Below, one piece after another: positions 1,253 to 21,789 of a stretch of 64,000 nucleotides of DNA. Numbering within the stretch: the stretch's first letter is position 1; every line of letters begins with the position of its first letter. Under the pieces are notes generated by a model that ran no database searches, was not told the DNA's origin, and was given only the letters and a program-made list of their open reading frames with translations. Position numbers and translations under genes: made by a program. The DNA is from Massalongia carnosa (taxonomy: Eukaryota). Where the stretch lies: NCBI GenBank assembly GCA_965645245.1, contig OZ287076.1, positions 1,612,001-1,676,000 of the forward strand. Reading direction: 5' to 3'.

Positions 1253-2266
1253 ATGACGAACACCCGTTCCCAAAGCACCCCGATGGACGACATAGTCCCC
1301 GACTCCTAGGAGATTGTCGGATTGACGCAGGCCCAGTCCAATCAAATCTTCGCCCTACAAAAGAAGAAAGCCGAGGCAGAAGCGAAGGCGGCCGAGGCTG
1401 AGGCCAGAATTGCCGAGTCCAAGGCATTGGTCGCCGAGAAGGAGGTGGAAAAAATGCAGCTAGAAATCGACTGCATGCGCCGAGAATCTGACGCCCGAAT
1501 AGCGGCCGTCATTCCTGCTGGCAAGCCGAGTCGTGTCGTCGGCGATGACGACGAGGACCTAGGTGAGATCCCTCTCGAAGTAAGAAGTATAGCACCCCGT
1601 TTCGCGGGCCTACCACAGGACGAGATCATCAAGATCTTTTCAAATAAATTCAAAGCCATCAACCTCTCCCGCCTCCGACACATGCACGGCATGCAATACG
1701 AGTCCTACAAGGATCAGGACCGCATCGGCATCGAAGACGGCGCCTTGAGGTTGAGAAAGGCATCCGGGACCTACAAAGATTTCGGAAAGACAGTTCATGA
1801 CGTCTGGACCGAGAGCTTCATCAACTACACCTCGATCATGGTCAGTCTTTTCGGGAAATCGAGTCAACAGCTTCACGCCACCATGTCGGCATTCCACGGA
1901 AAAATCCTCACGCTGGCCAAGGTGTACGAGTGGCAGGAAGCAGTCCTCCCCCTCGCCATCGAAACCCACACTCACATCATCGCGTCTCAGCCATCCGACG
2001 CATCCCAATGGAAAATGCCCGACGAATTCCAAGCTCGATTCTGCACCCCCCTCACAGTCCTACGCCGTCGCCGCTCACGATCCCCGCCGTCCCGGCGACC
2101 GACCCCGAGAGGAGACAGGGCCGATAGGGCCGAGAAGGCAGCGGGGGAAATCTGCGACAAGTACAACAGCGGCACCTGCACCTGGCCGTCGTGCTACCGA
2201 CAGCACAAATGTAAATCGTGCGGCGCGGCTGGGCATGGCCAGAAGACATGCCCAACGAAGAAATAG
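1253..2266 (+). pseudogene. gag: Ngaro ORF1 gag-like protein (N-terminal coiled coil, C-terminal Cys/His zinc fingers); in-frame TAG at 1307-1309
   Basis: ATG 1253 (MTNTRSQ...) is in frame with ORF 1322-2266. C-terminus is CDKYNSGTCTWPSCYRQHKCKSCGAAGHGQKTC. It is the first ORF of the element. Confidence 0.8.
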
Positions 2267-2311
2267 GGGGTTGGTGCAGGAGGCAGTAGAATAGCTTCAA
2301 TAGCTGAATTC

Positions 2312-3550
2312 ATGACGTCCCATCCCTGCTTACCTGCACCAATCAGACCAAATACAATCCCTTCGTTTCAACTCGTAGACGCATCTCGTCAGCGTTTGAA
2401 AGACAGCCCATCTCCCCTCGTACCGTCCGCATGGGCAACTCTACTTCAAGAGTATCCGGGCCCCCTCCGAGTCCATCTGCCCATGATCCTTCGTTTCGGA
2501 GTACAAATCGGATACGAAGGCCCCACAGACATCCTTCGGATCGAAAAAAATCTGACATCAGCGAATGAGGACCCGGAAACGATCGAGAATAAGCTCCAAG
2601 AGGACCTCAGGAAGGGCCGAGTCAGACGAATAGCCGCCCCGAGTCAGCCATTTGTGGCCTCCCCCCTCGGCTTGGTCCCGAAACATGACGGAGGATGGCG
2701 ACGCATTCATCATCTGTCTCATCCCAATCAAACATCAGTCAACGACAACATTCCAGAAGAGGCATCCAAATTACAATACGCCAGACTCGACGACATTATT
2801 CAATTGATTCTGTCAGCGGGCAAAGGTGCTGTCATAGTGAAAAGAGACGTCAAAGACGCCTTTCGAAACGTTCCCGTCGCACCTCATCATCAATGGCTTC
2901 TGGGTTTCGGATGGAATGACGAATTCTACACCGAGACATGCCTTTCCTTCGGACTGTCGACGGCCCCGTTCATCTTCAATCTTTTTGCGGAAGGCTTTCA
3001 TTGGATTTTGGAATCCTTTCTACAATGGAGATTACATCACTATCTAGACGACTTCGTTGCAATTTTCCCATCCGAGACATCGTCAGAACGATTGCACCAA
3101 GAAACAAAAGCCTACAACATTCTCACCGACATTCTTGGCATCCCGAGAAAGGACTCAAAAGACGCCGAGGGAACGACAGCGACAGTCTTCGGACTCGAGG
3201 TCGACACCATCAACAGTCTTATTCGTCTGCCAGCGGACAAGCTGGAAAAAGCGAGAATCATCACTACAAAGGCACTAAACGAGACGACAATCAGCCTCGG
3301 CGACATGCAGTCAATAGCGGGCTTCCTAAGCTTCTGCGCACAGGCAGTCAAATTGGGCCGAGTCTTCTTACGATTATTCTGGAATTTTATAGCCTCATTT
3401 CCCTCGGGCAGTCATCGTCGGGTCAAAAGAAGAATTCCCACATGGGTCAGACAGGATCTCATCTGGTGGAACAAACTTCTAGTGGACTTCAACGGTATTG
3501 TCTTCTTCGAGACGTCAACACGAGACACGATCAAGACAACGAGCTCGTGA
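2312..3550 (+). CDS. pol: Ngaro reverse transcriptase (pol), in frame with gag
   Basis: DIRS/Ngaro RT motifs SPLGLVPK, WRRIHHLS, KRDVKDAFRNVPV, CLSFGLSTAPFIFN, HYLDDF, FGLEVDT. Confidence 0.93.
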   Translation: MTSHPCLPAPIRPNTIPSFQLVDASRQRLKDSPSPLVPSAWATLLQEYPGPLRVHLPMILRFGVQIGYEGPTDILRIEKNLTSANEDPETIENKLQEDLRKGRVRRIAAPSQPFVASPLGLVPKHDGGWRRIHHLSHPNQTSVNDNIPEEASKLQYARLDDIIQLILSAGKGAVIVKRDVKDAFRNVPVAPHHQWLLGFGWNDEFYTETCLSFGLSTAPFIFNLFAEGFHWILESFLQWRLHHYLDDFVAIFPSETSSERLHQETKAYNILTDILGIPRKDSKDAEGTTATVFGLEVDTINSLIRLPADKLEKARIITTKALNETTISLGDMQSIAGFLSFCAQAVKLGRVFLRLFWNFIASFPSGSHRRVKRRIPTWVRQDLIWWNKLLVDFNGIVFFETSTRDTIKTTSS

Positions 3551-3966
3551 ATCAAAAAAACGCATGTAGGGCCCGAGTCCTAGTCCTCAATCAGGAAGGA
3601 TCACCGAGCATAAACGTCCGAGAAGTCGAAGCTATCCTTCTAATCCTTCAGAAATGGGCGCCGACATGGCGACATCGACAGATCCTTGTCTTTACCGACA
3701 GCAACACAGCATACACAGGATTCACGAATCTAACCCTCAAGGGACCGGCCAACGCGCCTCTACGAGAAATACTGTCCATAGCTGCAAAGTGGGACATCGT
3801 ACTACGTTGTCAATGGATCAGTGGCACTTCCAATGGACTAGCAGATGCCCTGTCACGTTTTGATGATGAAAGATTGGCTAACTTTTGCCCTCATTGGCAG
3901 AACCCATACAATTCGATGAACCTCCCTCCACCTACCTATCCTCCACACCAGGGTCAGCCCTGGTAA
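3530..3966 (+). pseudogene. RNase H domain remnant, out of frame with RT and lacking its first catalytic motif
   Basis: SINVREVEA, VFTDSNTAY and WISGTSNGLADALSR are present in the frame of ORF 2938-3966. No TDAS-like motif occurs upstream in either frame. Confidence 0.8.
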
Positions 3967-5048
3967 AACGTCTCGTCTGGCACGGACACTCGGCGGACAC
4001 GAGAAAAGGGTACGGGACGGCGATCGACTCATACGAGGCATTCTGCGCGACGACGGGACGCACGTCGTGGCCTGCAACAACCGAGTCCCTCGAGGAATGG
4101 CTAGCCGGTCGACTATACGGGGGCGGCACACCCAAGCAGGGAAAGATAAAACCAGAGACGGCAGCGAGCTACCTCGCCGGCCTCAGATCATACCATGTAG
4201 ACCGAGGATACGGCCTCACCCCATTCGAGGGGCCGAGACTTCAATTGATGCTGAAAGGGGGAAAAAGGATCTTTTCTCAGACAAAAAGAAGACGCCTACC
4301 CATTTCAAAAGAATTACTGACAAAAATCACCAGTATTCCCGCTCATTCGGCCGAAGACCTCAACATCGACGCGACATTCAAAGTTGCATGGGCAGGGTTC
4401 CTCAGACTCGGGGAAATCACCTACACTGTCGCTGATCGTAAGAAGACATCTTTTCAGAGATTGAAACCTACACGAGGTGACATCTCATTCGCCGAGAACG
4501 ATCAATACGCGACATTACGTCTCAAAAGAAGCAAAACAGACACAAATCACTCAGGAGTTCAGATAGTGCTGGCAGCGACCAATGAGAGCACTTGCCCCGT
4601 GACAGCACTACGGCGTCTTTTCAGAAATGATCCTCAGCCATCTACATCCCCGCTTTTTCGTCTCGGCACCGCATTCACCAGAGCCTCCGTCATAGCATCC
4701 CTGAAAAAGAGACTGATAGCCGTCGGCATCAACGACTCGGCATACTCGGGACACAGCTTCAGAAAAGGAGCAGCACAACACGCCGCCGACCACGGGATGC
4801 TGGATGAGAGTATTCAGAGACTCGGAAGATGGTCATCAAACGCGTTTCAGCTATACTTTCAGACGTCCCAGGCCTCACTATTCAATTTGAACCTCAGTTT
4901 TCAAAAAGGCATCCCTCTAGCAGTCCCACGTGCTGTCGTCGCCGAGACGAATCCTACAAACTCCTACCCCTACTCAATTGGGCATTCCATTGGGCGTACA
5001 GGTCAACCAGGGCATCGATCCGGAGCGCCGCCGGGCACCTCCATCTAG
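3885..5048 (+). CDS. Tyrosine recombinase (YR integrase) of the Ngaro element; open frame, no AUG near its 5' end
   Basis: SAM-like N-domain (SADTRKGYGTAIDSY) and catalytic R-K-HxxR-W-Y set: FLRLGE, SKTD, HSFRKGAA, LGRWSSNAFQLY. Confidence 0.93.
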   Translation: MPSLAEPIQFDEPPSTYLSSTPGSALVKRLVWHGHSADTRKGYGTAIDSYEAFCATTGRTSWPATTESLEEWLAGRLYGGGTPKQGKIKPETAASYLAGLRSYHVDRGYGLTPFEGPRLQLMLKGGKRIFSQTKRRRLPISKELLTKITSIPAHSAEDLNIDATFKVAWAGFLRLGEITYTVADRKKTSFQRLKPTRGDISFAENDQYATLRLKRSKTDTNHSGVQIVLAATNESTCPVTALRRLFRNDPQPSTSPLFRLGTAFTRASVIASLKKRLIAVGINDSAYSGHSFRKGAAQHAADHGMLDESIQRLGRWSSNAFQLYFQTSQASLFNLNLSFQKGIPLAVPRAVVAETNPTNSYPYSIGHSIGRTGQPGHRSGAPPGTSI

Positions 5049-9184: not shown

Positions 9185-12075
9185 GACACGGAGCAGCATA
9201 GCAAACGGTCATTATAGACCATTCAATTCGATTGGTTTAACTGAAGTGGACTCGATCTGATTAACGAGTATGAACCTGGGGAGGTGGAACTTTTACAAAA
9301 AGCATCAAACTCGATTTCCAGCTTGCATCTGCCCCTCTGCCACTTCTGATGCTAGCTTATCTCGCCTGTTCCCTTGGAGCAGCAATTGGGTTCCATCCCT
9401 CGAATCAAATCGATTTCCCATATATCGGCGGTTTCATCATTCAAGTCGGCTATGGAAGTCAGGCGGCCGATAAGCAGCCACCCGCCTCCACATTTTCCGA
9501 GGCACATCTTACTTCGGACATACCATTTCATGCCCTCTTGGGTTGGATATAAAGCGCTCGCTAGGTTTAACTTCCGGCACGGGACGGGCGGCACTCTTCT
9601 CCCTCGGATCTTTCCTTCTCTTTTATCTTCTCCAGTCACCTCAAGACGGCTTCCCCAGCATTTTCCAGGCTATTGTCGCGGCTTCCCACAATTTTGCCGA
9701 AATATCACATACACTACTACATACATAAGCGATCTGAGCGTACTGCACCACTACTGCATAGCTACTGTGTGCATTGTGTTCCCGCACAGAGGAAAGGTGT
9801 GTTTCCTTTCTAACTGTTTGCTGCTGCTTTAAAGCATTCACTTCACAGAAGTATTGCGAGGCGTACTCTTTGTCTTCAATTTCACAGAAAGGGAGCGGAG
9901 GGATGGTCCGCCCAGGGTGGGTGAGGCAACTATCTAAGTGACTTGAATGGCATTGGGTCTGTATTATGGGAGCCTGCACAAAATCTCTGAAGCTGCCAGC
10001 CTTGCTTATCCAAAATACACATAAATTACGACAAGGAACCAAACTTGCTACGTACAAACAATCACGTGGCATGCTTCATTGGCTCGTAGCCCCTTGTTTC
10101 CTGTTTTACTTATCGTTGCCGTACCTCGCCCATAACCACTGAATTGAACCATTATGTTTCTTTTTAAGTACAATCACGCAATTTCCCAATACATACCTAC
10201 CTCTATACCATCCCTCTCTAGCGTCAGTTTCCCCTCACTATTCAATAGTCGTTTCGCAAATGTTTGTGCGAAGCAGCGGACTAGCTAATCTCCGGGACTT
10301 GAGCCAGAATGGAGAGGAGGTCATCCACCGTTCCTCGCACAACGTTTTTCGTGAACAAAATCAGGCCTTCCTTCATTCGTACCTTTGCCTTTTCATAACG
10401 CGACTATTTTGCGATTGGCTCGGCATTTGTGCAAAGGACAATGCTACGTCTAATTTTTTACAATGTGCCCGTATTGTGTCCTGATAGGTAGTCCGATTTC
10501 TAGGCTTCCTTGTGGCGGGCTTTTACTCAGCATACAGGCATGATCTCGGATTGCCATTTCTCTGTCTATTGTCCTTTCCTGTAATATGTGTGAGTATATC
10601 TGTATCTCTTACTCGGTTGATTTCTTTTCCAGTCTCATCGAGCCAGACCGCTGATCTCGATGAGTGTCGCTTGCGTGCTTTCACGGCTCTCGTCTTTCCC
10701 CTCTTCCACTAGTCTGCTCACCATGATTCATTTTGTTTTGCAAACGTCTTTCATACGATCGTTAGGTTCTTTCGGTGGGAGGATCCCATGTCAGTAGTAG
10801 TAGTAGTAGTTGTTGTTGTTGTTCGTTCCGAGGCTCGAGTTTTTCTTGCTCGCTTGTTGCATACCAAAAAGCCCCCCCACAGCTAATTATGCCTTTACCA
10901 CTAAGACCTTCGCTCCCTCGCTATATTCCACTTCCATCTTTCTTTCACACCTTTATCTCAGGTAAATAGAACTCCCTCCCTCAGAGAAAAATTCGCGGTA
11001 GGCTGTCCACATATCTACAGCTCATATAGCTCCTTGATGTGATTGTAAACGCTAGACCCACGATGTTGCCTTAAAAAGAAAACCTTGTAAAAGCATTTGT
11101 GTGAAATCGTAGTAGGGGATTAGCTGTGGACGTATTTTTTTCTTCTTTTTGTTGGTGGTAAGGCTTTTTTTTTTTTGAGTAGGGGATATAAATTCTTTTA
11201 GAGACGAAGGGGTTTTGGTTTGGGGGTGTATTTAAGAAGCTTCTTATTTCTATTCTTTCCTCCTCCCTTTCCATCATCACTCGTTTCATCTCTGTTTTTC
11301 CCACACTCTTTCTTTTCCAATCTCCCCTTTTCCCATGCTCTTCCTTATTCTCCCTGCAAATTTCAAAAATCCCTTTTAAAAACTCTTCATTGAACCACAC
11401 TTTCTGTCAGAATATTCCTAAACCTGAAGGATTTTACTTTCCCGCTTTCTTCCCTATAGATTGTCAAGTCTCAACTTTTCCCTGTTCGTTTGGGCCTGGT
11501 TACTTGCTTTTGGGGGTATGCGCTTGAAATAGGTATAGTCCACCTCAAGGCTATGGGATTTCAGAGGGATTTACGTAGTGAGTTAGTGGAGAGGGAGGTT
11601 GGGATGGGAGAAGTTGGACGGAGGAGTTGAGGGGCGGTGTAAGAGCTAGGGTTTAAAGGGCAGTAGGGCGGCAGGACGGACAGGGAGTGGGAAGTGACAC
11701 GGGGACTCGAATTTTATGAGATCGCTACGGTTGAGGAGAAAGTGGAAACACCCTCATATACCCCAAAAAACAGGCATCCATTCGCAACGGCTTCGGGGGA
11801 GTTAAATTCCTAACAATGATTATCGATGTAGTAGGGCTGAGGGTGACTGCGGCTGGTGAGCGGGGTAATGGGTAATGGGAGGTTGGGTAGTCAGAAAAGG
11901 GGAGGGGACTAAGGTAGGTAGGGCTGAATGAATGGCACGTGATAAATACGGGCATGTGTGTACATGTACGTAAGAATCTGTGCAGCTGCTGAGCAGTTGT
12001 TTCTTTCTTGCGAGAGTTTTCCATTTCATTATGTTAAGGATATAACATAAGTTAATAGGTTGCCCAATTGCAAGA

Positions 12076-15000
12076 ATGGGTGATTATTCCGCCCCAAGTA
12101 GTGTAGCAGCAAATACCTTTCTACCGGCAGAACGATCAGTGAGGGAAGGCATCTACTGGGGTTGGCCGCCTTCCGGAAGCTTTGCCTCCTTTGTCTGTCG
12201 TTTTGCACATCTTGAAAAACATAATCGAGTGGATCATTCGGTCTTCTTTGATGCTGACAACGAGGTTTTTGGTCCACGGATCCATCTTGGCGAAGGTGCA
12301 TTATTTCGTGTAGAAAGATCCGAATGGAGGAAAACAGAGCCTAGCAAGCCACTTTCGGAGAATGAGAGGAAAAGAGGAAAATATGTGGCCCTCAAGGGGG
12401 CATTGCCAGGGCCGCGAGGGCAGTGGAGTGATGTGTGGCTAGAAGTTCGGGCGCTCCTTCACAAACCACTACGATACCATCCGAATATAGTTCACCTACT
12501 AGGACTTAGATGGGGCACAATATCTGGCAATGACTCCATATGTCCTATTCTAATCATGGAATATGCACAAGGAGGTTCGCTCCTCTCTTTGCAGGAGAAT
12601 AACCCTAGGTTACCATTTGTGATGAAGCAAAAGCTTTGTCATGATGTGGCAAAAGGTCTTTCGATTCTGCATGCGTGTGGAATTGTTCATGGAGACTTGA
12701 GAAGTGAAAATGTTTTGATTTTCCAAAACCATCAACCGGAAGTTTCATATACGGCGAAGTTGGCGGATTTTGGCGGATCAGTTGGGGACACCACTAAAGA
12801 AAGGGCAAACTCGCTTCAACTGGGAACTTGGCCCTACACGCCACCGGATACTCCTGAAAACAGACTAGATGTGCTTTCAGGGGGCGATTGGACCTACACG
12901 CCACCGATAGAGACATGCTATCGGTTAATTGAGGGTGTCAAGCAGGCCGACGTATACTCTTTTGGGCTGCTTGTATGGAGGACAATTATTGATGGTCAAA
13001 GCATTTTGGATGTTTCTGAACTAAAGAACAAGACGACTCTAGAAATCCAAGGGATGAAATTGAGCGATCACTTTGGGGCTATTGCCGAGAAAAGCATCCG
13101 AAGCCACGGTGCCGCGCCAGTTCTATCTGAAAATGAGCTTAACGTCATATTTTATGTCCTTGACAATACCATTCAGACGGAGCCAACAAAGCGAAGCCTT
13201 GCGAAAGTATCGGCTGCCCTGAAAGGCATAGAGTAAGTAAAATGAACACCCAATGTGGCTAAACCCTGACTCTGCTAGCATTTATGCCATCGAGGACTTC
13301 CTCGGGAATATTAGGAGAAACGAGATAGCGAAAGAAACTACCCAGGAGAAGGATCCGGAAAGAGACGAGGTGGACGGGGACGGCATATGTTACTCTTTGG
13401 GGGAGTTGGTGGACAATGACGATGCTCAAGAAGACTGTACTGGATATCGTCTTGGACTAGATCATCTTGATACTGAAAATACGCTTTTTGAACCAAATAA
13501 CCTCAAGGCCATCTTAAGCTGGGAGCAGCAGAACAAGATGGTTTCTGATTTCGTAAATGCTGCAACTGGTGCGATAACGGATTCCTTACTGGAGTTGAAA
13601 CCTGGGACGGCAGCATATTATCTATTTCAGTGCCATCTTACCGAATTCGGGGTCCTTTTTGATGCTACAAAAGTCTGTTACTGGCTTGCTCGAGCAGCTA
13701 CCTCGGAACATGAAGGTGGTGTCTGTAACTACGCAAAGGCCTGGCTTTGGCGTATTGAGAATGTTTACCATTTTCAACCAGACATCTCGTCAGATGCCCT
13801 TCGCAGATTAATGGGCGACTCGATAATCAGAGGTCATCGAACCTGCATTCAAGATATTGGAATCATCATACAAGATTCTGAACTGTCAACTGAAGAGGAA
13901 AGAAATGCATGGAGAGAGACGCTGAACAAGTCTACGAAGTCGCTGTATACCTCCGGTGGAGCAGTTAGAATGCCTTACTTTCCAGCTAGGATTATGCGCC
14001 AAGATTACTGCCTTCATGATTTAGAGATATTGGACGGTGAAGTTGAAGCACAGTTGGGAGCTGATTATGCAGCTTCATTGAGTTTTGGATTGCCCTGGGA
14101 TATCCAGCTTGAGTCTGAGACAACTGGGTGGCGGACATTTGATAAGATCTATGTCAACCAATGTGGGCATGGGCTGCTTCATTATGCAGCATCGATGGGA
14201 AAACTTATAGCACTGAAGCACCTAGTAACGAAATATAAGGCTAATATCAACCTTCCAAGTCGAACACTTTCCGAATCTCCGTTAATGTGCGCCTGTATTA
14301 GCGGTCATTTAGACTGCGCGGTCTTCCTACTCGAACGTGGAGCTGATCCTTCCGTTAGTACACAAACAATGGAGACTCCAATGCACTGGCTCTGTAACTT
14401 TGACGAGGATGCGATACCTGTTATTGCAAAAAAGCTTAGGGATGCTGGTGTCTCTATTGATACCCCTTGTCATGGTGAACGAGAAGATAGGGGCCCTATC
14501 TGGACTGATTGGGAGAAACTGTATTCGGTCCCTGTCACTCCTTTAGGCAGGGCCGTGATTTTGAAAAGCTTGCCGGCTATAAGAGCGCTCCTTGCACTGG
14601 GCGCGGATCCTCTAGCAAGGCCGAAATGGGGCGAGAATGGCAAACCCGCCAGATCGGCAATTGAGCTCGCCGCAGTCTTGACGCTGCCACATATATTGGA
14701 GGTTCTTCTGACTTATGTTGATGCAAGATCAGGGGTGAGACCTAGGATATTCAATGAGTATGAGATGCTTCGGGCGGCTCATAACAAAATCATCACCCCT
14801 TGTGATACACTTTCGCTCCAGAGCAGGCTGGTTCGATGCGGAAAGAACTATAGACATGATTTGTGGCTAACTCTGCAGATGTTGCGAAAACGAGAACAAG
14901 AGTTGAAAAGCTGGCAAGATGGAGACGAGTCTAGAACCGAAGGCCGCCTGTTGTGTGAAGAGGTTAGTCTCGGTGAAATAGACATTGTGGAAATGTTGCT

Positions 15001-16495
15001 TGGGCTAGGACACAGTGCGAATGGATCTCCAGAATACCGACCCATAGTTGAGGCAGTGAAACTGAACCATGAAATCATGTTTCGCCTCCTCGTCAATCAC
15101 GGTGCCGAAGTTTCTGCAAAAGTGGAATCCAACGGACGTCAACTGTCGTTGCTTCAATTATCTGCCAGCCGCCCAAGAACTTCTCGATCGGGCTGCGCTA
15201 TTGCGGAAGATCTGTTATGTGCAGGTGTGGCAATTGATCCGATTTGTGATGGGACCTGTCCTGCCTTTGCCTTGGCTGTAAAGAATCAAGATTTCGAGCT
15301 TGCCGATCTCCTTCTCGCGTATGGAGCCGATGTCAACGCAACATATCAAAGTGTTCTTGGAGGCAATTGGATCACAGTTTTGGAGGAGTTAGGCCAGGAT
15401 CATTTCAAGAAGAAAATTTCACAGAGCAGTAAGAGACTCCAGTCAAGACTTTTGATTCTAGAAGACCCTATGGATGGTGCTTTGCCGCCGCACCTGGAAG
15501 CGGGTCGACAGAATAGTGTAACAAACACATCACTGCCAAACCGAATCATTGAAACCCCCTCTGGAGGGGACCCATCGGGAAACGTAAAATCGGAAGTGAT
15601 CCGGCAACTTGATGAATCAAAAGAAGAAATCAATCCTGAACTAATAGAAACTCCAAGTACAACCCTTTCAGACCCACTTCCTCGATCTTTTTCAAGCATA
15701 GAACCCAAGAAAGACGACGCCGTTTTACGACAAGTCTCTACGTCTACACTAAATGTAGATGATTCCTCGTGCAAATCAGGCAAAACAGAAGTCGAAGCAA
15801 ACCCTCCACCCGAGAATCAGCCACTGATAATCAACTCGGACGAGTCCAATCACACAATCCCTCCATCGCCCTCTCCCGTCACATCACCTACCCAGAATCC
15901 TCCCGGCCAACCCCTTCCGCCCGGCTGGGAAATGCGCCCCGATTGCACCGGCCGCATCTACTACCTAAACCACAACACCAAAACCACCACTTGGCTCCGC
16001 CCCAACTCAAGCGACGAAGGCACCCAAGAGCTCCTTCCCGCAGGGTGGGAGGTCAGGATCTCGGAACCGGCCGGTCGGCTTTATTACATTGATCACAATT
16101 CCAAAACCACAACCTGGGAGCCCCCCAGCTCACAGGATTCGGCAACCAAGCCGAACCTCCCCACTGGGTGGGAGAAGAGAAGAACGGAAAAGGGGAGGCA
16201 GTATTTCGTGGACCATAACACCAGAACTTGCTATTGGGACTTGCCTGCCTCGGTCTTGGCCTCGGTGCCTCCTCATCCTGCAGCAGCAGCCGCTGATGCA
16301 GAGAAGGGGAATCTGCAAGATGGCGACGACAAGGGAGAAGATTCCAAACCTTCAGGGACTGGGGCTGCGGTGTCCGAATTAGGGATGTTGGTGGAAACTC
16401 CCGCTGCGGCTGGGGAATTTGGAGTGAGAGCGGAAACGGAGCTGGAGCGATTAACGAGAGAGCTTATGAAGGCTATGGGGAAGGGGAGTTTGTGA
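12076..16495 (+). CDS. Protein kinase - helical region - ankyrin repeats - 3x WW domain protein (~1457 aa; one 46-nt intron 13233-13278)
   Basis: Kinase motifs LGEGALFRV, VALK, HPNIVHLLG, HGDLRSEN, ADFGG, DVYSFG. Intron GTAAGT...CTGAC...CTAG fuses the two ORFs in frame (GA|C ATT TAT). Ankyrin repeats (LLHYAA, ESPLMCAC...GADP, TPLGRAV) and three LPxGWE...Y(Y/F)xxHN...W..P WW domains. Confidence 0.88.
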
Positions 16496-16540: not shown

Positions 16541-16579
16541 GTTAAGCAGGGATGAGCTTAACTACTTGTTTCGGCGGCG
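16541..16579 (+). repeat. 39-bp element, copy 1 (perfect inverted match to 23909-23947)
   Basis: GTTAAGCAGGGATGAGCTTAACTACTTGTTTCGGCGGCG. Confidence 0.9.
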
Positions 16580-18001: not shown

Positions 18002-19723
18002 TTAATTGGCTTCCTGAGACTTGATTGCAACTGATTTCTTTAGTTGCTGCCGCTTCACCCTTAGACCGTCGCTGTCAACCTCCACCTCTTCATCCTTGGC
18101 TCCGTCAATTTCTCTGAACACCTCTAGAGCTTCAGCCGCAGTTGGACGCTGATGCACCGACCAGGCAAGCATTCGTTGTACAATCTTGAGAAAAGATACA
18201 TCTATGGTGGCTTTATTCGTATTAGCTTCATGTATCTTGCGTTCAAGATCCTGGCAAATGGCCTTGTACAGGTGGGCCGTCATGCAGTAATTGAACATGG
18301 CTTTGCCACTATATATAGTATAAGCAGACACTCCTAGTGTCCATACATCAACCTTTCGCCCATAAGGCGGTGGTAGTGAGAGGTTCGTCTTTCTAAGTCT
18401 CCTCTCCCTATCCGACTCTTTCAATGCAACAATTTCAGGAGCAAGATAGCTTAAGGTACCCTGCAGATGGTTTGTCAACGTCTCATCACGGGTGGCAGAG
18501 TCGAGATCAAGAATAACACATCTGGGAGGATAGAGACCAGCGACGCCAAGATTGCTGGGCTTGATGTCTCGGTGCATCACACCCTTTTCTTCGTGTAAAA
18601 ATGCTAAACTAGCGAGGTATTCCCGAACAATGTTACTTTAACTTGGGTCGTAAAAGCGAAACTTTTCTTATTTGGTAAATCATGTAGCCTACAAGACGCC
18701 AATGGCTGGTATATACAATAAGCTTCTGGAATCAACGCGGAGGGTCTAGCATAACAGTCAAGAAGCTCGAGGATATTGGGCTTGCTTGAACATTAGTCAG
18801 CTCATGGTGATGCAAGTTGCGCTTACGTGTTGACCGATATGAGCCATCATTTTTCTATGTGCGCTCAACTCCGCTACCTTCGGCTTGTTGAATTTCTTGA
18901 CGGCAATCAGTTTGCCATCTTCCCGTGGACCCGCTGTCACCACTCCAAATGTTCCTTTTGCAAAAGCCCCCAGATGCCAGGAATACGCACACAATGTCAT
19001 TTTTGGGTCATCGGTGCTCGAGCCAAGCAGCGCCGATAAGCTTTTCCAGGTCACACCATGAGTTTTCTTCATATACCTCTCAAGCTGTTCTTCATATTCT
19101 TCGGAGCGAGCGAAATCTTTTTGCTGAAAACTATAGACGCAATCGCCAATTCGAATCTCATCTTCCCATGAAAGTTGTCTCTGAAAGGGTCTTGTAGACT
19201 GGGAGAGCGCAACATTGTCCACAATTTTTGTATGGCGAGCGCGTAGTACCAGGCGAGATGATTCCTCATGGGGAAGGATAAGGGCATGTATACCGGCGAT
19301 GCCTGGGACTTTTTTGGGACCACTTAGCAAGATATCGACTTACCTGGCTCCTAAGCTGCGTCTATCTCCTAGGTCCCATCCTTTTTTAGAATATCTCGGA
19401 GGGTTGCTGAGTTTAAAATGATGTCCTCCTTGATATCGAATAGGTTGGGTCTCAGGGCCGATAGCAATCTCGGCAGTGTCGCTATCAGTAAACACACTTG
19501 TAGCACTAACCGATTCATGACGAACGGGTTCTATGGTCATATTCCGGCTTGCGTAGGCGAACAAGGCTGGATTGAGTTTGATGGCATCAACCGCATGATC
19601 GAAGGCAAAGCGAGCCTCGCGGTTGAATGGCTCAAGATACGCAAATGACTGCAATGAAAACGCATCAATAGGACTTTTTTGCCCTTCTGATCCGTCCAGC
19701 TCGTTTGACGGATCTCCTGGCAT
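18002..19723 (-). pseudogene. Ser/Thr protein kinase with probable FHA-like N-terminal region; pseudogene
   Basis: One frame runs ...RSLGAR*VDILLSGP (TAA at 19340-19342). Kinase motifs AKGTFGVV, IAVKKF, an intron (about 18781-18826), PNILELL, then a 1-nt frameshift near 18625 before EYLASLAFLH-HRDIKPSN, GTLSYLAPE, KVDVW, RPTAAEAL. Confidence 0.8.
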
Positions 19724-20180
19724 CCTCCCTTGTTAAAAAAAAGCACTCTACCAAATCAAACAAACAAATACTCTATTAAACTTGCAGCGTTACAAGATTA
19801 TTGAACTCATCAGCAGCGGTAGTAAACAAAAAGCTGTGGCTTCAGTACGCAGTGTTGGTTACATAGTACTCTGTACATCGGGTGGGGTAGCACGGGTAGT
19901 TAGTTACGGAGTAGCCCACCTCCAATCTACACTGAATCACAAACGTATCACAAATGTGTCACGAACAGGTCACGAACATGCCACGAACTGGTGGTGAGGT
20001 GGTCTGCTGGTATTAGGCTGCTCTGAAGACCTGAGTTAATAGCTGAAGGGCTAAGGAGAAGGTGGCTCTCGTCGATAAAACGCAAAGGTTATGGATTCGA
20101 TTCATCATTACAGAGTATCATGTAGTGCTATCAAATGTCAGAACGTATCACGAGCATATCACGTGATTTTATCGACAGTA

Positions 20181-21789
20181 CGAAGGATGACGCCGAAAGT
20201 CCTTGCTAACGCTAAATATGCAGCTAAAAAAGCCACTTTACATGGGTATATTTGTATGGATAGATATTTATTAAATATCAATCCTTCGAATAATCGCAGG
20301 AAGCTATTCAGAATTATCACCATCATCATCTTTATCACTTACACTCGTCGCTGTCAGTGCTTTCTCGTTTGAGATGAGCGCGATGATATCGAACACGGCG
20401 ATCTTCTTTATTATACGGTCGTAGGACTCCGATCTCTCTACCTTCTCTATACTCGTTACCTCCGTCCAACAATATCACCTCGTCAACATGTCGCTTTATA
20501 CGTTCAATCCAGGACTGAATTCTTTTCTGCGTCAACTCCTCCGTCCAGCACTTTGTCTAGGCCTTTTCAGCCTCAATACGAGTCCGCGGAGCAGGTAATC
20601 GAGTGGTTCTTCGCTTCATCCAGAACCAGCAAGGCTCGATCATGTCCAGATCAGGAGAATTTCCAGGCCATAACAGACGCATGACGTTGAAATCTATAAA
20701 GATCAGATTTTGATGTTTGGATGCGTGACTGGGGGCCTTGTCTTCCTGTACGATAGTATTTGGTCGATCTATCATACATTCTTTTGCAAACGGAAGAAGC
20801 TTAGGTATTAAGACGAGTTTTTCATAACGATACCAGTCTACTCCTCCCTTGCCATCTCGAACGACTTTACCGTGTGTTTTATCCCATTTCCAGATAGGTT
20901 TTCGACCTCCTGGATTACGTAGCTTCATTCGTCTCATGCTTGTTTCTAACTCCCAATTCTCTTTAGCTTCTGATTCTAAAGTCTTATTGAGTTTATCTAG
21001 CTCAATTTGAGCCTCTCTTTTCTCTTTTGCGGTCTCTGTTTTTCAGATATGAAAAGGTCCTTTCTTATCGTACGAAAAACAGCCCCAAAACAAAAACTCG
21101 GAGCATCCTTTCCATCTACGTCGAATACACGTTTTACCATAAATTTCTTTCGAGGTACGCCACTGAAGTCTTCTTCCACGTCTATAACCCAATATAATAC
21201 TTGTTTTGTCAGTCCATATAACGTTCTTCCAATTATCAATAGTCTAGTGCTGATATTGCAAACAAAATTGCAGATGAGCCTCTTTCATGATCGAATCTAG
21301 ACCTGGTTTTTTCGTGCTTTTACAGGGGCGAAACCCATTCTGTTTAAGCGTACGAAGTATAGTAGTGGAGGAGAGTTTATGATCAAAGCCAATCATAGCT
21401 GATGATTTTTCTCCGCTATTTCGATCTTACACTACATTATTCAATATAGCTTGCTCTACCTCTAGTGTAACCTTTTTAGGTCGTCCTGAACGAGGTGCAT
21501 CTTCTATATATTCTACTTTTAAAATACGAGATACAGCTGGATCCTATCCACGCTGTCGTGCTTTGATTTTGAGAGCTGAAATCGATCTTGTGGAGACTCA
21601 AGTCACTGCTTGCACGGTTTTCGCAGCAATTCCGTGTTCTACAAGCGCTAAAGCCTGTATTCTTTGTGCAATCGTGAGACTATTGCTCTGTGCATTGGGC
21701 ATGATAATGATGATGATTAAAACTTTCTACTGAATATCAGATGTAGTATTACTGTCTTTTTGACGACGGACTTTCAGCGTCATCCTTCG
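20181..21789 (-). mobile_element. Tc1/mariner (DD34E) DNA transposon, decayed
   Basis: 22-bp TIRs CGAAGGATGACGC(C/T)GAAAGTCC at 20181-20202 and 21768-21789 (1 mismatch), with TA on both flanks (20179-80, 21790-91). Confidence 0.93.
20335..21702 (-). pseudogene. Tc1-like transposase with multiple in-frame stops
   Basis: HTH region with PRSGRP, WKNVIWTD(K)TS, and QEDKAPSH-...-WPGNSPDLDMIE (34 residues between D and E). At least five TAG/TAA/TGA codons in frame. Confidence 0.9.

Follow-up and report, generated by a model that had tools for sequence, protein, structure and literature searches.

A kinase-ankyrin protein with a Nedd4-type triple-WW tail in lichen-forming fungi: evidence for a single domain graft

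Two adjacent open reading frames (ORFs) in the genome of Massalongia carnosa raise the question of whether a protein kinase, an ankyrin-repeat platform and three WW domains can belong to one protein and, if so, what such a combination might do. The ORFs lie within what we call the window, the whole stretch of 64,000 nucleotides (nt) analyzed here (assembly GCA_965645245.1, contig OZ287076.1, positions 1,612,001 to 1,676,000); all coordinates below are positions in that window, and all features are on its forward strand unless a minus sign is given. Judged by its sequence, the kinase-ankyrin-WW locus is a real gene with two exons that belongs to a lichen-forming ascomycete, and 0.92 of the sampled words of the window were present in a sequencing run labeled as a lichen metagenome. 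Taken as a whole, its product is best explained, in our judgment with reasonable probability, as a cytoplasmic scaffold of 1457 amino acids (aa) onto which a WW tail was swapped and which would serve tethering and scaffolding rather than phosphotransfer.

The two ORFs (12046 to 13236 and 13241 to 16495) are offset by one frame. Automatic ORF calls give the kinase and the ankyrin-WW parts separately (P0226 and P0001), and these might thus be two separate genes, with the intervening intron unspliced, or a locus decaying in this species. From an ATG at 12076, however, exon 1 (12076 to 13232) extends from Met1 into codon 386, of which it supplies the first two bases, encoding an N-terminal segment, of which the start (SFASFVCRFAHLEKH) matches the family consensus ASFICHxAxLE in the alignment, and the kinase domain. 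It is followed by a phase 2 intron of 46 nt (13233 to 13278, GTAAGT...CTAG) with canonical GTAAGT...AG signals and by exon 2 (13279 to 16495, with the stop codon at 16493 to 16495 included). Removal of the 46 nt brings the frames together via a split codon (...AALKGI-D-IYAIEDFLGN...), yielding a coding sequence of 4374 nt that translates into 1457 aa. The spliced junction aligns gap-free with 16 full-length homologues, and both of the WW-bearing sequences among them (GLD-LHTIEDFL and GHD-LNTIELFL) also have the Asp that the split codon creates. Furthermore, 12 of 16 exon-1-type ORFs of relatives stop no more than one residue from the same point (...ALKG[QLI]E-stop), the ending expected from reading through a GA/GTAA donor, and for six exon-1 ORFs of relatives a matching exon-2 ORF was found on a contig of equal size.

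One 90% cluster from a Lobaria-like relative is informative here, as it comprises both split forms (374 aa plus 736 to 743 aa) and joined forms of 1183 aa. The split P0321 and the N-terminal part of the joined P0004 share 99.7% identity, with P0321 ending in ...ALKGLE, where P0004 runs on (...ALKGLDLHTIEDF). The joined form would be either an assembled mRNA or an intron-less allele and, either way, places both parts in one reading frame. In the GenBank models of Pseudocyphellaria aurata, Lobaria immixta and Sticta canariensis, the kinase and ankyrin-WW parts are joined as well, and both ORFs of the window are intact over 4.4 kb. On the other side, the contigs obtained from four sequencing runs were all contiguous, unspliced and DNA-like, with no splice joints, and an unusual duplication in the kinase (described below) would fit a decaying locus. 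On balance, two genes or a decaying locus appear very improbable, and we infer splicing at 13233 to 13278 from indirect evidence that we regard as strong.

What does this gene encode? In exon 1, Pfam detected a protein kinase (PK_Tyr_Ser-Thr, 8.7e-20; Pkinase, 2.8e-18), and in exon 2 it detected Ank families (8e-19 to 1e-10) and WW domains (1.6e-31, in three stretches). An AlphaFold2 model of exon 2, based on a 65-row alignment, reached a mean predicted local distance difference test (pLDDT) score of 76 and a predicted template-modeling score of 0.69. The kinase domain (12253 to 13200, residues ~60 to 375) is of the tyrosine kinase/tyrosine kinase-like (TK/TKL) and non-RD (HGD) type, with the loop HGDLRSEN and a DFG motif. 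It is followed by an all-helical, Sel1-like region (13487 to 14134, residues ~456 to 671), helical over exon-2 residues 70 to 285 at pLDDT values mostly above 90; the Sel1 match itself was weak (22.4 bits, below the cut-off) and was obtained in the same region of orthologue P0018 only. Next comes a solenoid of ~12 ankyrin repeats (14147 to 15397), detected by Pfam and modeled over exon-2 residues ~290 to 706, again at pLDDT values mostly above 90, for which Foldseek returned only generic ankyrin/DARPin solenoids, among them AnkB R13-24 and the D34 region of ankyrin-R (TMt, 0.52 to 0.58). A disordered Ser/Thr/Pro-rich linker (15398 to 15913; pLDDT below 50 over exon-2 residues 745 to 874), which does not align to homologues, leads to the WW domains. 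These are WW1 (15914 to 16003, residues 1265 to 1294; the best Pfam stretch, exon-2 residues 879 to 908, and also a regex match), WW2 (16034 to 16126, residues 1305 to 1335; found by Pfam and with one additional loop residue) and WW3 (16157 to 16246, residues 1346 to 1375; found by Pfam and with a Cys where most Nedd4-type WW domains have a Thr before the second Trp). They recur with a period of 40 to 41 aa, and each is modeled as a three-stranded WW fold (pLDDT, ~76 to 83). The C-terminal tail (16247 to 16492) is predicted to end in a helix (exon-2 residues 1048 to 1067; pLDDT, ~70 to 78). A look-up of the linker and WW part in the ESM Atlas gave no usable match.

This layout agrees with an earlier note on this DNA, made from the letters alone, which had read the two ORFs as one ~1457-aa protein joined across a 46-nt intron and composed of a kinase, a helical region, ankyrin repeats, a disordered linker and three Rsp5/Nedd4-like WW domains; Pfam and, for exon 2, AlphaFold2 concur on the domains. 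The note was also right that C2 and HECT are missing, as neither gave a Pfam match at an E value of ≤0.1 in either exon. Its term "receptor-like," on the other hand, found no support: Pfam matched only kinase, Ank and WW and no NACHT or NB-ARC domain, the region between kinase and ankyrin repeats is all-helical in the model, and no evidence of a signal peptide or transmembrane segment was found for the window protein.

The type of the WW domains is clear from several comparisons. Profile PF00397 matched three stretches (108.4 bits), all with the two signature Trp residues and the terminal Pro. The best matches among solved structures were NEDD4L, Itch and WWP1 (4e-40 to 3e-35), with WW3-WW4 of Itch aligning contiguously and at the same spacing to WW1-WW2 of the window. 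All 119 of the 119 non-self matches listed in a search with the WW region carry WW domains together with HECT and/or C2, although metazoan ligases with four WW domains made up almost all of the matches, as the score of a protein is summed over its repeats. An exhaustive WW search found 5888 proteins at an E value of ≤1e-3, topped by proteins with 5 to 28 WW repeats; among the 33 scanned of the 150 matches listed, 22 contained HECT and none contained a kinase. The window WW domains are closer to those of animal WWP1/WWP2 (identity, 0.72 to 0.77) than to their own neighbors (0.50 to 0.60), which argues against a recent internal triplication. WW1, for example, is 73% identical both to WW2 of WWP1-type ligases and to WW1 of Zancudomyces Rsp5. 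The binding groove of Nedd4/YAP-type WW domains comprises an aromatic pair, a His and a Thr two residues before the second Trp; WW1 and WW2 read YY.[ND]H...TTTW, and WW3 reads YF.DH...TCYW, with SC[QH]W conserved in orthologues. By their profile, structure and database matches, the three domains are Nedd4/Rsp5-type WW domains, putatively of class I. As to their donor gene, domains of 30 residues do not discriminate: in a comparison that included no Lecanoromycetes Rsp5, identities to fungal, chytrid and animal Nedd4-type WW domains all fell between 0.43 and 0.77, without a clear nearest source.

To which protein was this array added? A search with exon 2 returned 91 non-self relatives at an E value of ≤1.4e-69 (family E values, 4e-268 to 1e-69), most of them 1250 to 1500 aa long, with a kinase and ankyrin repeats, from Ajellomycetaceae, Fusarium, Pyricularia, Gaeumannomyces, Trichoderma, Podospora, Dothideomycetes, Leotiomycetes, Orbilia, Trichoglossum and a few Agaricales. 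The window protein is colinear with this family in its kinase, helical and ankyrin parts and falls inside the family tree, for which only columns of the helical and ankyrin parts were used and those of the WW domains were left out (65 rows, 645 columns; IQ-TREE quick mode, LG+G4). Rows group by fungal class (Eurotiomycetes, Sordariomycetes, Dothideomycetes, Leotiomycetes, Orbiliomycetes and Geoglossomycetes, plus some Agaricales), and the family, of which the length is conserved at ~1350 to 1400 aa, is therefore conserved and vertically inherited across Pezizomycotina, contrary to the previous description of kinase-ankyrin proteins as variable and lineage specific. Thirteen loci found in a metagenome scan (28 to 42% identity) were all at the level of the WW-less relatives. 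In full-text literature searches, we found no functional study of any member of the family.

WW domains, in contrast to the core, are confined to the nearest relatives. Precomputed Pfam annotation gave them in 14 of the 91 non-self matches, and a rescan of these 14 found three WW domains in eight, two in four and one in two, with none in all three WW-less controls. The 13 WW rows positive by regex form one tree group, with a Shimodaira-Hasegawa-like approximate likelihood ratio test (SH-aLRT) support of 97; P0011, which has three degenerate WW-like units, is sister to it, and the resulting group of 14 has a support of 99. Since the WW rows form one tree group, a single gain suffices, the WW label requiring one change on the 65-row tree; as this tree reads, the cassette was gained once, at the base of the lichen-fungus clade. 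The suggestion that a WW cassette was grafted onto a kinase-ankyrin scaffold is thereby upheld, in the form of an addition to a WW-less family. The named WW-bearing members (Pseudocyphellaria, Lobaria and Sticta) all belong to Lobariaceae (Peltigerales, Lecanoromycetes). Among orthologues, WW domains at the same position are more similar (identity, 0.67 to 0.76) than those across positions (0.47 to 0.54), so WW1, WW2 and WW3 are positionally orthologous. WW3 is the best conserved (mean identity, 0.76); in four rows, WW2 is degenerate or missing.

WW-less members extend beyond the ankyrin region that they share with the window protein: they have additional ankyrin repeats as well as a helical stretch and end in a conserved terminal motif (PVDLSVLTEEKPxxWKEGDEM..A.RT.LK.MR); in P0014, for instance, an Ank match lies at residues 1189 to 1215 of 1368, in a region absent from the WW clade. 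A MAFFT alignment had hinted that the terminal motif was kept in the window, but a hidden Markov model of 35 motif instances gave no match, and shuffled tails (1000) scored higher, so that its retention is not supported. Separately, ten WW-less relatives that fall with Sordariomycetes (P0042, P0045, P0047, P0052, P0060, P0061, P0066, P0067, P0070 and P0076) carry [ND]NLPGYR[PL] after the kinase, a motif of LPxY form. P0091 has INLPGYKT, and the window reads CTGYRL at the corresponding position. LPxY occurs only sporadically in relatives, for instance as NNLPGYRP around residue 450 of some rows of Sordariomycetes type.

The kinase domain scores above the curated cut-offs of both profiles, PF07714 (71.5 bits; cut-off, 23.1) and PF00069 (66.7 bits; cut-off, 31.7). 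It is distant from the kinases of solved structure, of which the best matches were JAK, LRRK2, RIPK3, RIPK1, IRAK4 and Chk1 (4e-11 to 1e-7), and in orthologue P0004 the modeled kinase can be overlaid on RET, FGFR and SYK (TM score, ~0.7), Foldseek giving generic tyrosine kinase folds only. In an alignment of 150 kinases of the family, the pattern G, G, K, E, H, G, D, K, N, D, F, G, E, D hardly varies. In the window, the Lys of the catalytic loop is replaced by Arg (HGDLRSEN), and all 10 of the 10 rows of its subclade have lost this Lys (nine Arg, one Ile). The window is further marked by a tandem duplication of 20 codons in the P+1/APE segment (12823 to 12942, GTWPYTPPDTPENRLDVLSG and GDWTYTPPIETCYRLIEGVK), the copies of which are identical at 20 of the first 24 nt and at 30 of 60 overall; the position of the APE Glu is occupied by Asp in copy 1 and by Ile-Glu in copy 2. 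The duplication is absent from all 18 aligned relatives (19 sequences including the window).

At least one of five core catalytic residues is lost in 6 of the 10 subclade rows: the catalytic Asn is changed to Lys in P0012, P0230 and P0233, the last of which also has Gln for the alphaC Glu, and in P0231, P0232 and P0234 the DFG Asp has given way to His, Asn or Thr. By comparison, a core residue is missing from 0 of the 6 other rows of the lichen clade and from 7 of the 101 complete rows outside it. That the losses hit different sites points to no fewer than four independent events. The kinase part shows signs of decaying in the close relatives of the window protein. As a separate observation, a Leotiomycetes-type branch (P0030 to P0032 and P0240 to P0243) has Thr for the catalytic-loop Lys (HGDLTH[AR]N), with the remaining catalytic residues all kept.

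Several points weigh against a role in scaffolding and have to be set beside this decay. All five core residues are present in the window (Lys107 of VALK, Glu123 of alphaC, Asp207 of HGD, Asn212 and Asp231 of DFG), so its protein may be an active kinase. Active tyrosine kinases, moreover, can have an Arg at this position of the catalytic loop. The excess of core-residue losses (Fisher P = 9e-5) is indicative only, as the rows are related and their independence is overstated, and the outside count refers to complete rows, 33 of 134 having been dropped for gaps. The Cys of WW3 is conserved in the clade at the usual Thr position, and the specificity of this domain may accordingly differ. Moreover, binding to PPxY (PY) motifs, the identity of the partners and the scaffold role itself are what we infer.

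In a different reading, the kinase is fully active and the WW cassette docks PY substrates, such as arrestin-type Rsp5 adaptors, for phosphorylation. Besides the five residues kept in the window, the nearest WW-bearing relatives (P0227/P0002 and P0228/P0003) and the P0011 group have the full canonical pattern, and HGDLRHEN and DFG are likewise retained in the proteins of Lobaria and Sticta. Yet 6 of the 10 subclade rows lack a core catalytic residue while retaining WW1 and WW3, and the window carries the Lys-to-Arg change, the APE Glu-to-Asp change and the duplicated P+1/APE segment. Although we hold this reading to be rather unlikely overall, it is a serious rival for the window protein itself. 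The term "catalytically complete," used in the earlier note, is accordingly correct at the level of the core motifs, all five residues being present, but functionally doubtful in view of the loop Lys, the APE Glu, the duplication and the missing catalytic residues of close relatives.

How, then, might the protein work as a scaffold? Its core is a non-RD, TK/TKL-like kinase with a Sel1-like helical region and ~12 ankyrin repeats, orthologous to the Pezizomycotina-wide family, and at the base of the clade the ancestral tail, with its additional ankyrin repeats, helical stretch and terminal motif, was replaced by the disordered linker and the triple WW array. Nedd4/Rsp5-type WW domains bind PPxY motifs, with tandem WW domains binding multi-PY partners with avidity, and in fungi it is chiefly the adaptors and substrates of Rsp5 that carry PY motifs. 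The array would thus be predicted to dock with avidity onto PY proteins, in fungi mainly adaptors or substrates of the Rsp5 ubiquitin ligase, and the docking would bring these to the ankyrin platform and the kinase. Because of the Lys-to-Arg change and the duplicated P+1/APE segment, the kinase of the window lineage is probably weak or noncanonical, and several sister lineages would be pseudokinases. WW1 and WW3 are kept while catalysis decays in the sister lineages; therefore, a role in scaffolding or in competition with Rsp5 is more likely than one in phosphorylation. The most likely function would be that of a PY-motif-tethered scaffold or weak kinase. A role as a sensor or decoy for PPxY proteins, as proposed in the earlier note, would be conjecture.

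An autoregulatory role of the array was also considered, in which the WW domains bind the protein's own phosphorylated Ser/Thr-Pro-rich linker or the duplicated YTPP segment and gate the kinase or the ankyrin platform, by analogy with WW-linker autoinhibition in the Nedd4 family. The linker is indeed disordered and rich in SP/TP sites, and TPP/TP motifs occur in the duplicated segment. However, the window protein contains no PPxY or LPxY motif, so its WW domains most likely reach other proteins, and relatives lack the duplication and have linkers that are much shorter or different; such self-binding therefore seems improbable. Returning to the scaffold, we would speculate, as a possibility that we hold only tentatively, that the WW gain made catalysis dispensable, with a conserved kinase in lichen fungi of Peltigerales type repeatedly and independently becoming a pseudokinase scaffold or decoy in or against the Rsp5-adaptor network and with the window protein, given its Lys-to-Arg change and duplicated P+1/APE segment, as an intermediate.

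The gene neighborhood is ordinary. Upstream, a series of long ORFs (1310 to 5048), one with an RVT_1 match (1.3e-12, at 2267 to 3547), is probably a retroelement. Just 3' of the stop codon lies a short repeat of ~39 bp (16541 to 16579) that is present elsewhere in the genome; contigs of three sequencing runs break there, and a 39-bp contig has approximately double depth. A separate Ser/Thr kinase gene follows (18002 to 19732, minus strand; Pkinase, 3.7e-22 on 18005 to 18637; loop HRDIKPSN), and a relationship between this neighboring kinase (18002 to 18637, minus strand) and the kinase-ankyrin gene was ruled out (BLASTP E value of 0.021 over 29 aa). The translation of an ORF at 20557 to 21042 (minus strand) looks, by eye, like a fragment of a putative Tc1/mariner-type DDE transposase. 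Farther downstream (24947 to 50918) are genes for an M20 peptidase, an Arb2-domain protein, a ribosomal S14-like protein, a short-chain dehydrogenase, a WD40 protein and a HAD hydrolase.

Full-text literature searches found no paper on a kinase-ankyrin-WW protein, and the main texts of two fungal kinome papers, searched by term, contained no occurrence of ankyrin, Ank or WW domain (PMC2838846) and none of ankyrin (PMC3245316). The remark that this architecture was not recognized as described thus remains valid for the literature searched, but full-length proteins of this kind are already in GenBank, as hypothetical proteins of P. aurata, L. immixta and S. canariensis, and the earlier note's proviso that the architecture might already be annotated therefore applies in part. 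All of the domains are known, and their combination is a lineage-restricted domain graft, not a new kind of system. Its value lies in the event itself, a clean and datable case of domain shuffling in which a kinase-ankyrin scaffold acquired a Nedd4/Rsp5-type WW array within a single clade of lichen fungi. The graft predicts a new link between PY-motif (Rsp5-adaptor) signaling and such a scaffold, and the repeated loss of core residues in the WW-bearing subclade offers a natural series for the passage from kinase to pseudokinase after the arrival of a new targeting module. PY-motif partners would also provide a first functional handle on a Pezizomycotina family with members in Histoplasma, Blastomyces, Paracoccidioides, Fusarium and Pyricularia.

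Among known systems, the closest is the WW-less Pezizomycotina family itself, annotated in GenBank as "serine/threonine protein kinase" (Paracoccidioides, Blastomyces and Emergomyces) or "hypothetical protein" (Fusarium, Pyricularia, Trichoderma and others). It is colinear with the window protein, at 37 to 47% identity over ~65% of exon 2, shares the non-RD HGD loop and DFG and, in some relatives (e.g., P0240), has ORFs that end at the same exon-1 boundary; it differs in its tail, which consists of ankyrin repeats, a helical stretch and the PVDLS... motif instead of a disordered linker and three WW domains. Animal RIPK4 and ANKK1 have an N-terminal RIP-type kinase followed by ankyrin repeats and are not known to have a Sel1-like region or WW domains. 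The order of kinase and ankyrin repeats is thus shared, and RIPK1 and RIPK3 are among the matches of the window kinase (~1e-8), but the RIP-type likeness is weak, since JAK and LRRK2 score equally well or better and the structural matches are RET, FGFR and SYK. Fungal NOD-like receptor-type proteins, which combine an N-terminal effector with ANK, TPR or WD repeats, differ by their central NACHT or NB-ARC domain. The Rsp5/Nedd4 HECT ligases resemble the window protein in the WW domains, each of which is 72 to 77% identical to WWP1/WWP2-type ones, and in a spacing of ~40 aa, as in WW3-WW4 of Itch; in contrast, the window protein has a Cys for the usual Thr in WW3 and lacks C2 and HECT, so it cannot ubiquitinate. 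Finally, two of the 33 proteins scanned in the exhaustive WW search, P0450 (three WW domains and HET) and P0418 of Macrolepiota fuliginosa (WW, C2 and NACHT), carry tandem Nedd4-type WW domains, 50 to 72% identical, on a nonligase module, as the window protein does, although their partner domains are HET and NACHT and their WW domains are N-terminal. WW arrays seem to have been shuffled onto several fungal signaling and incompatibility modules.

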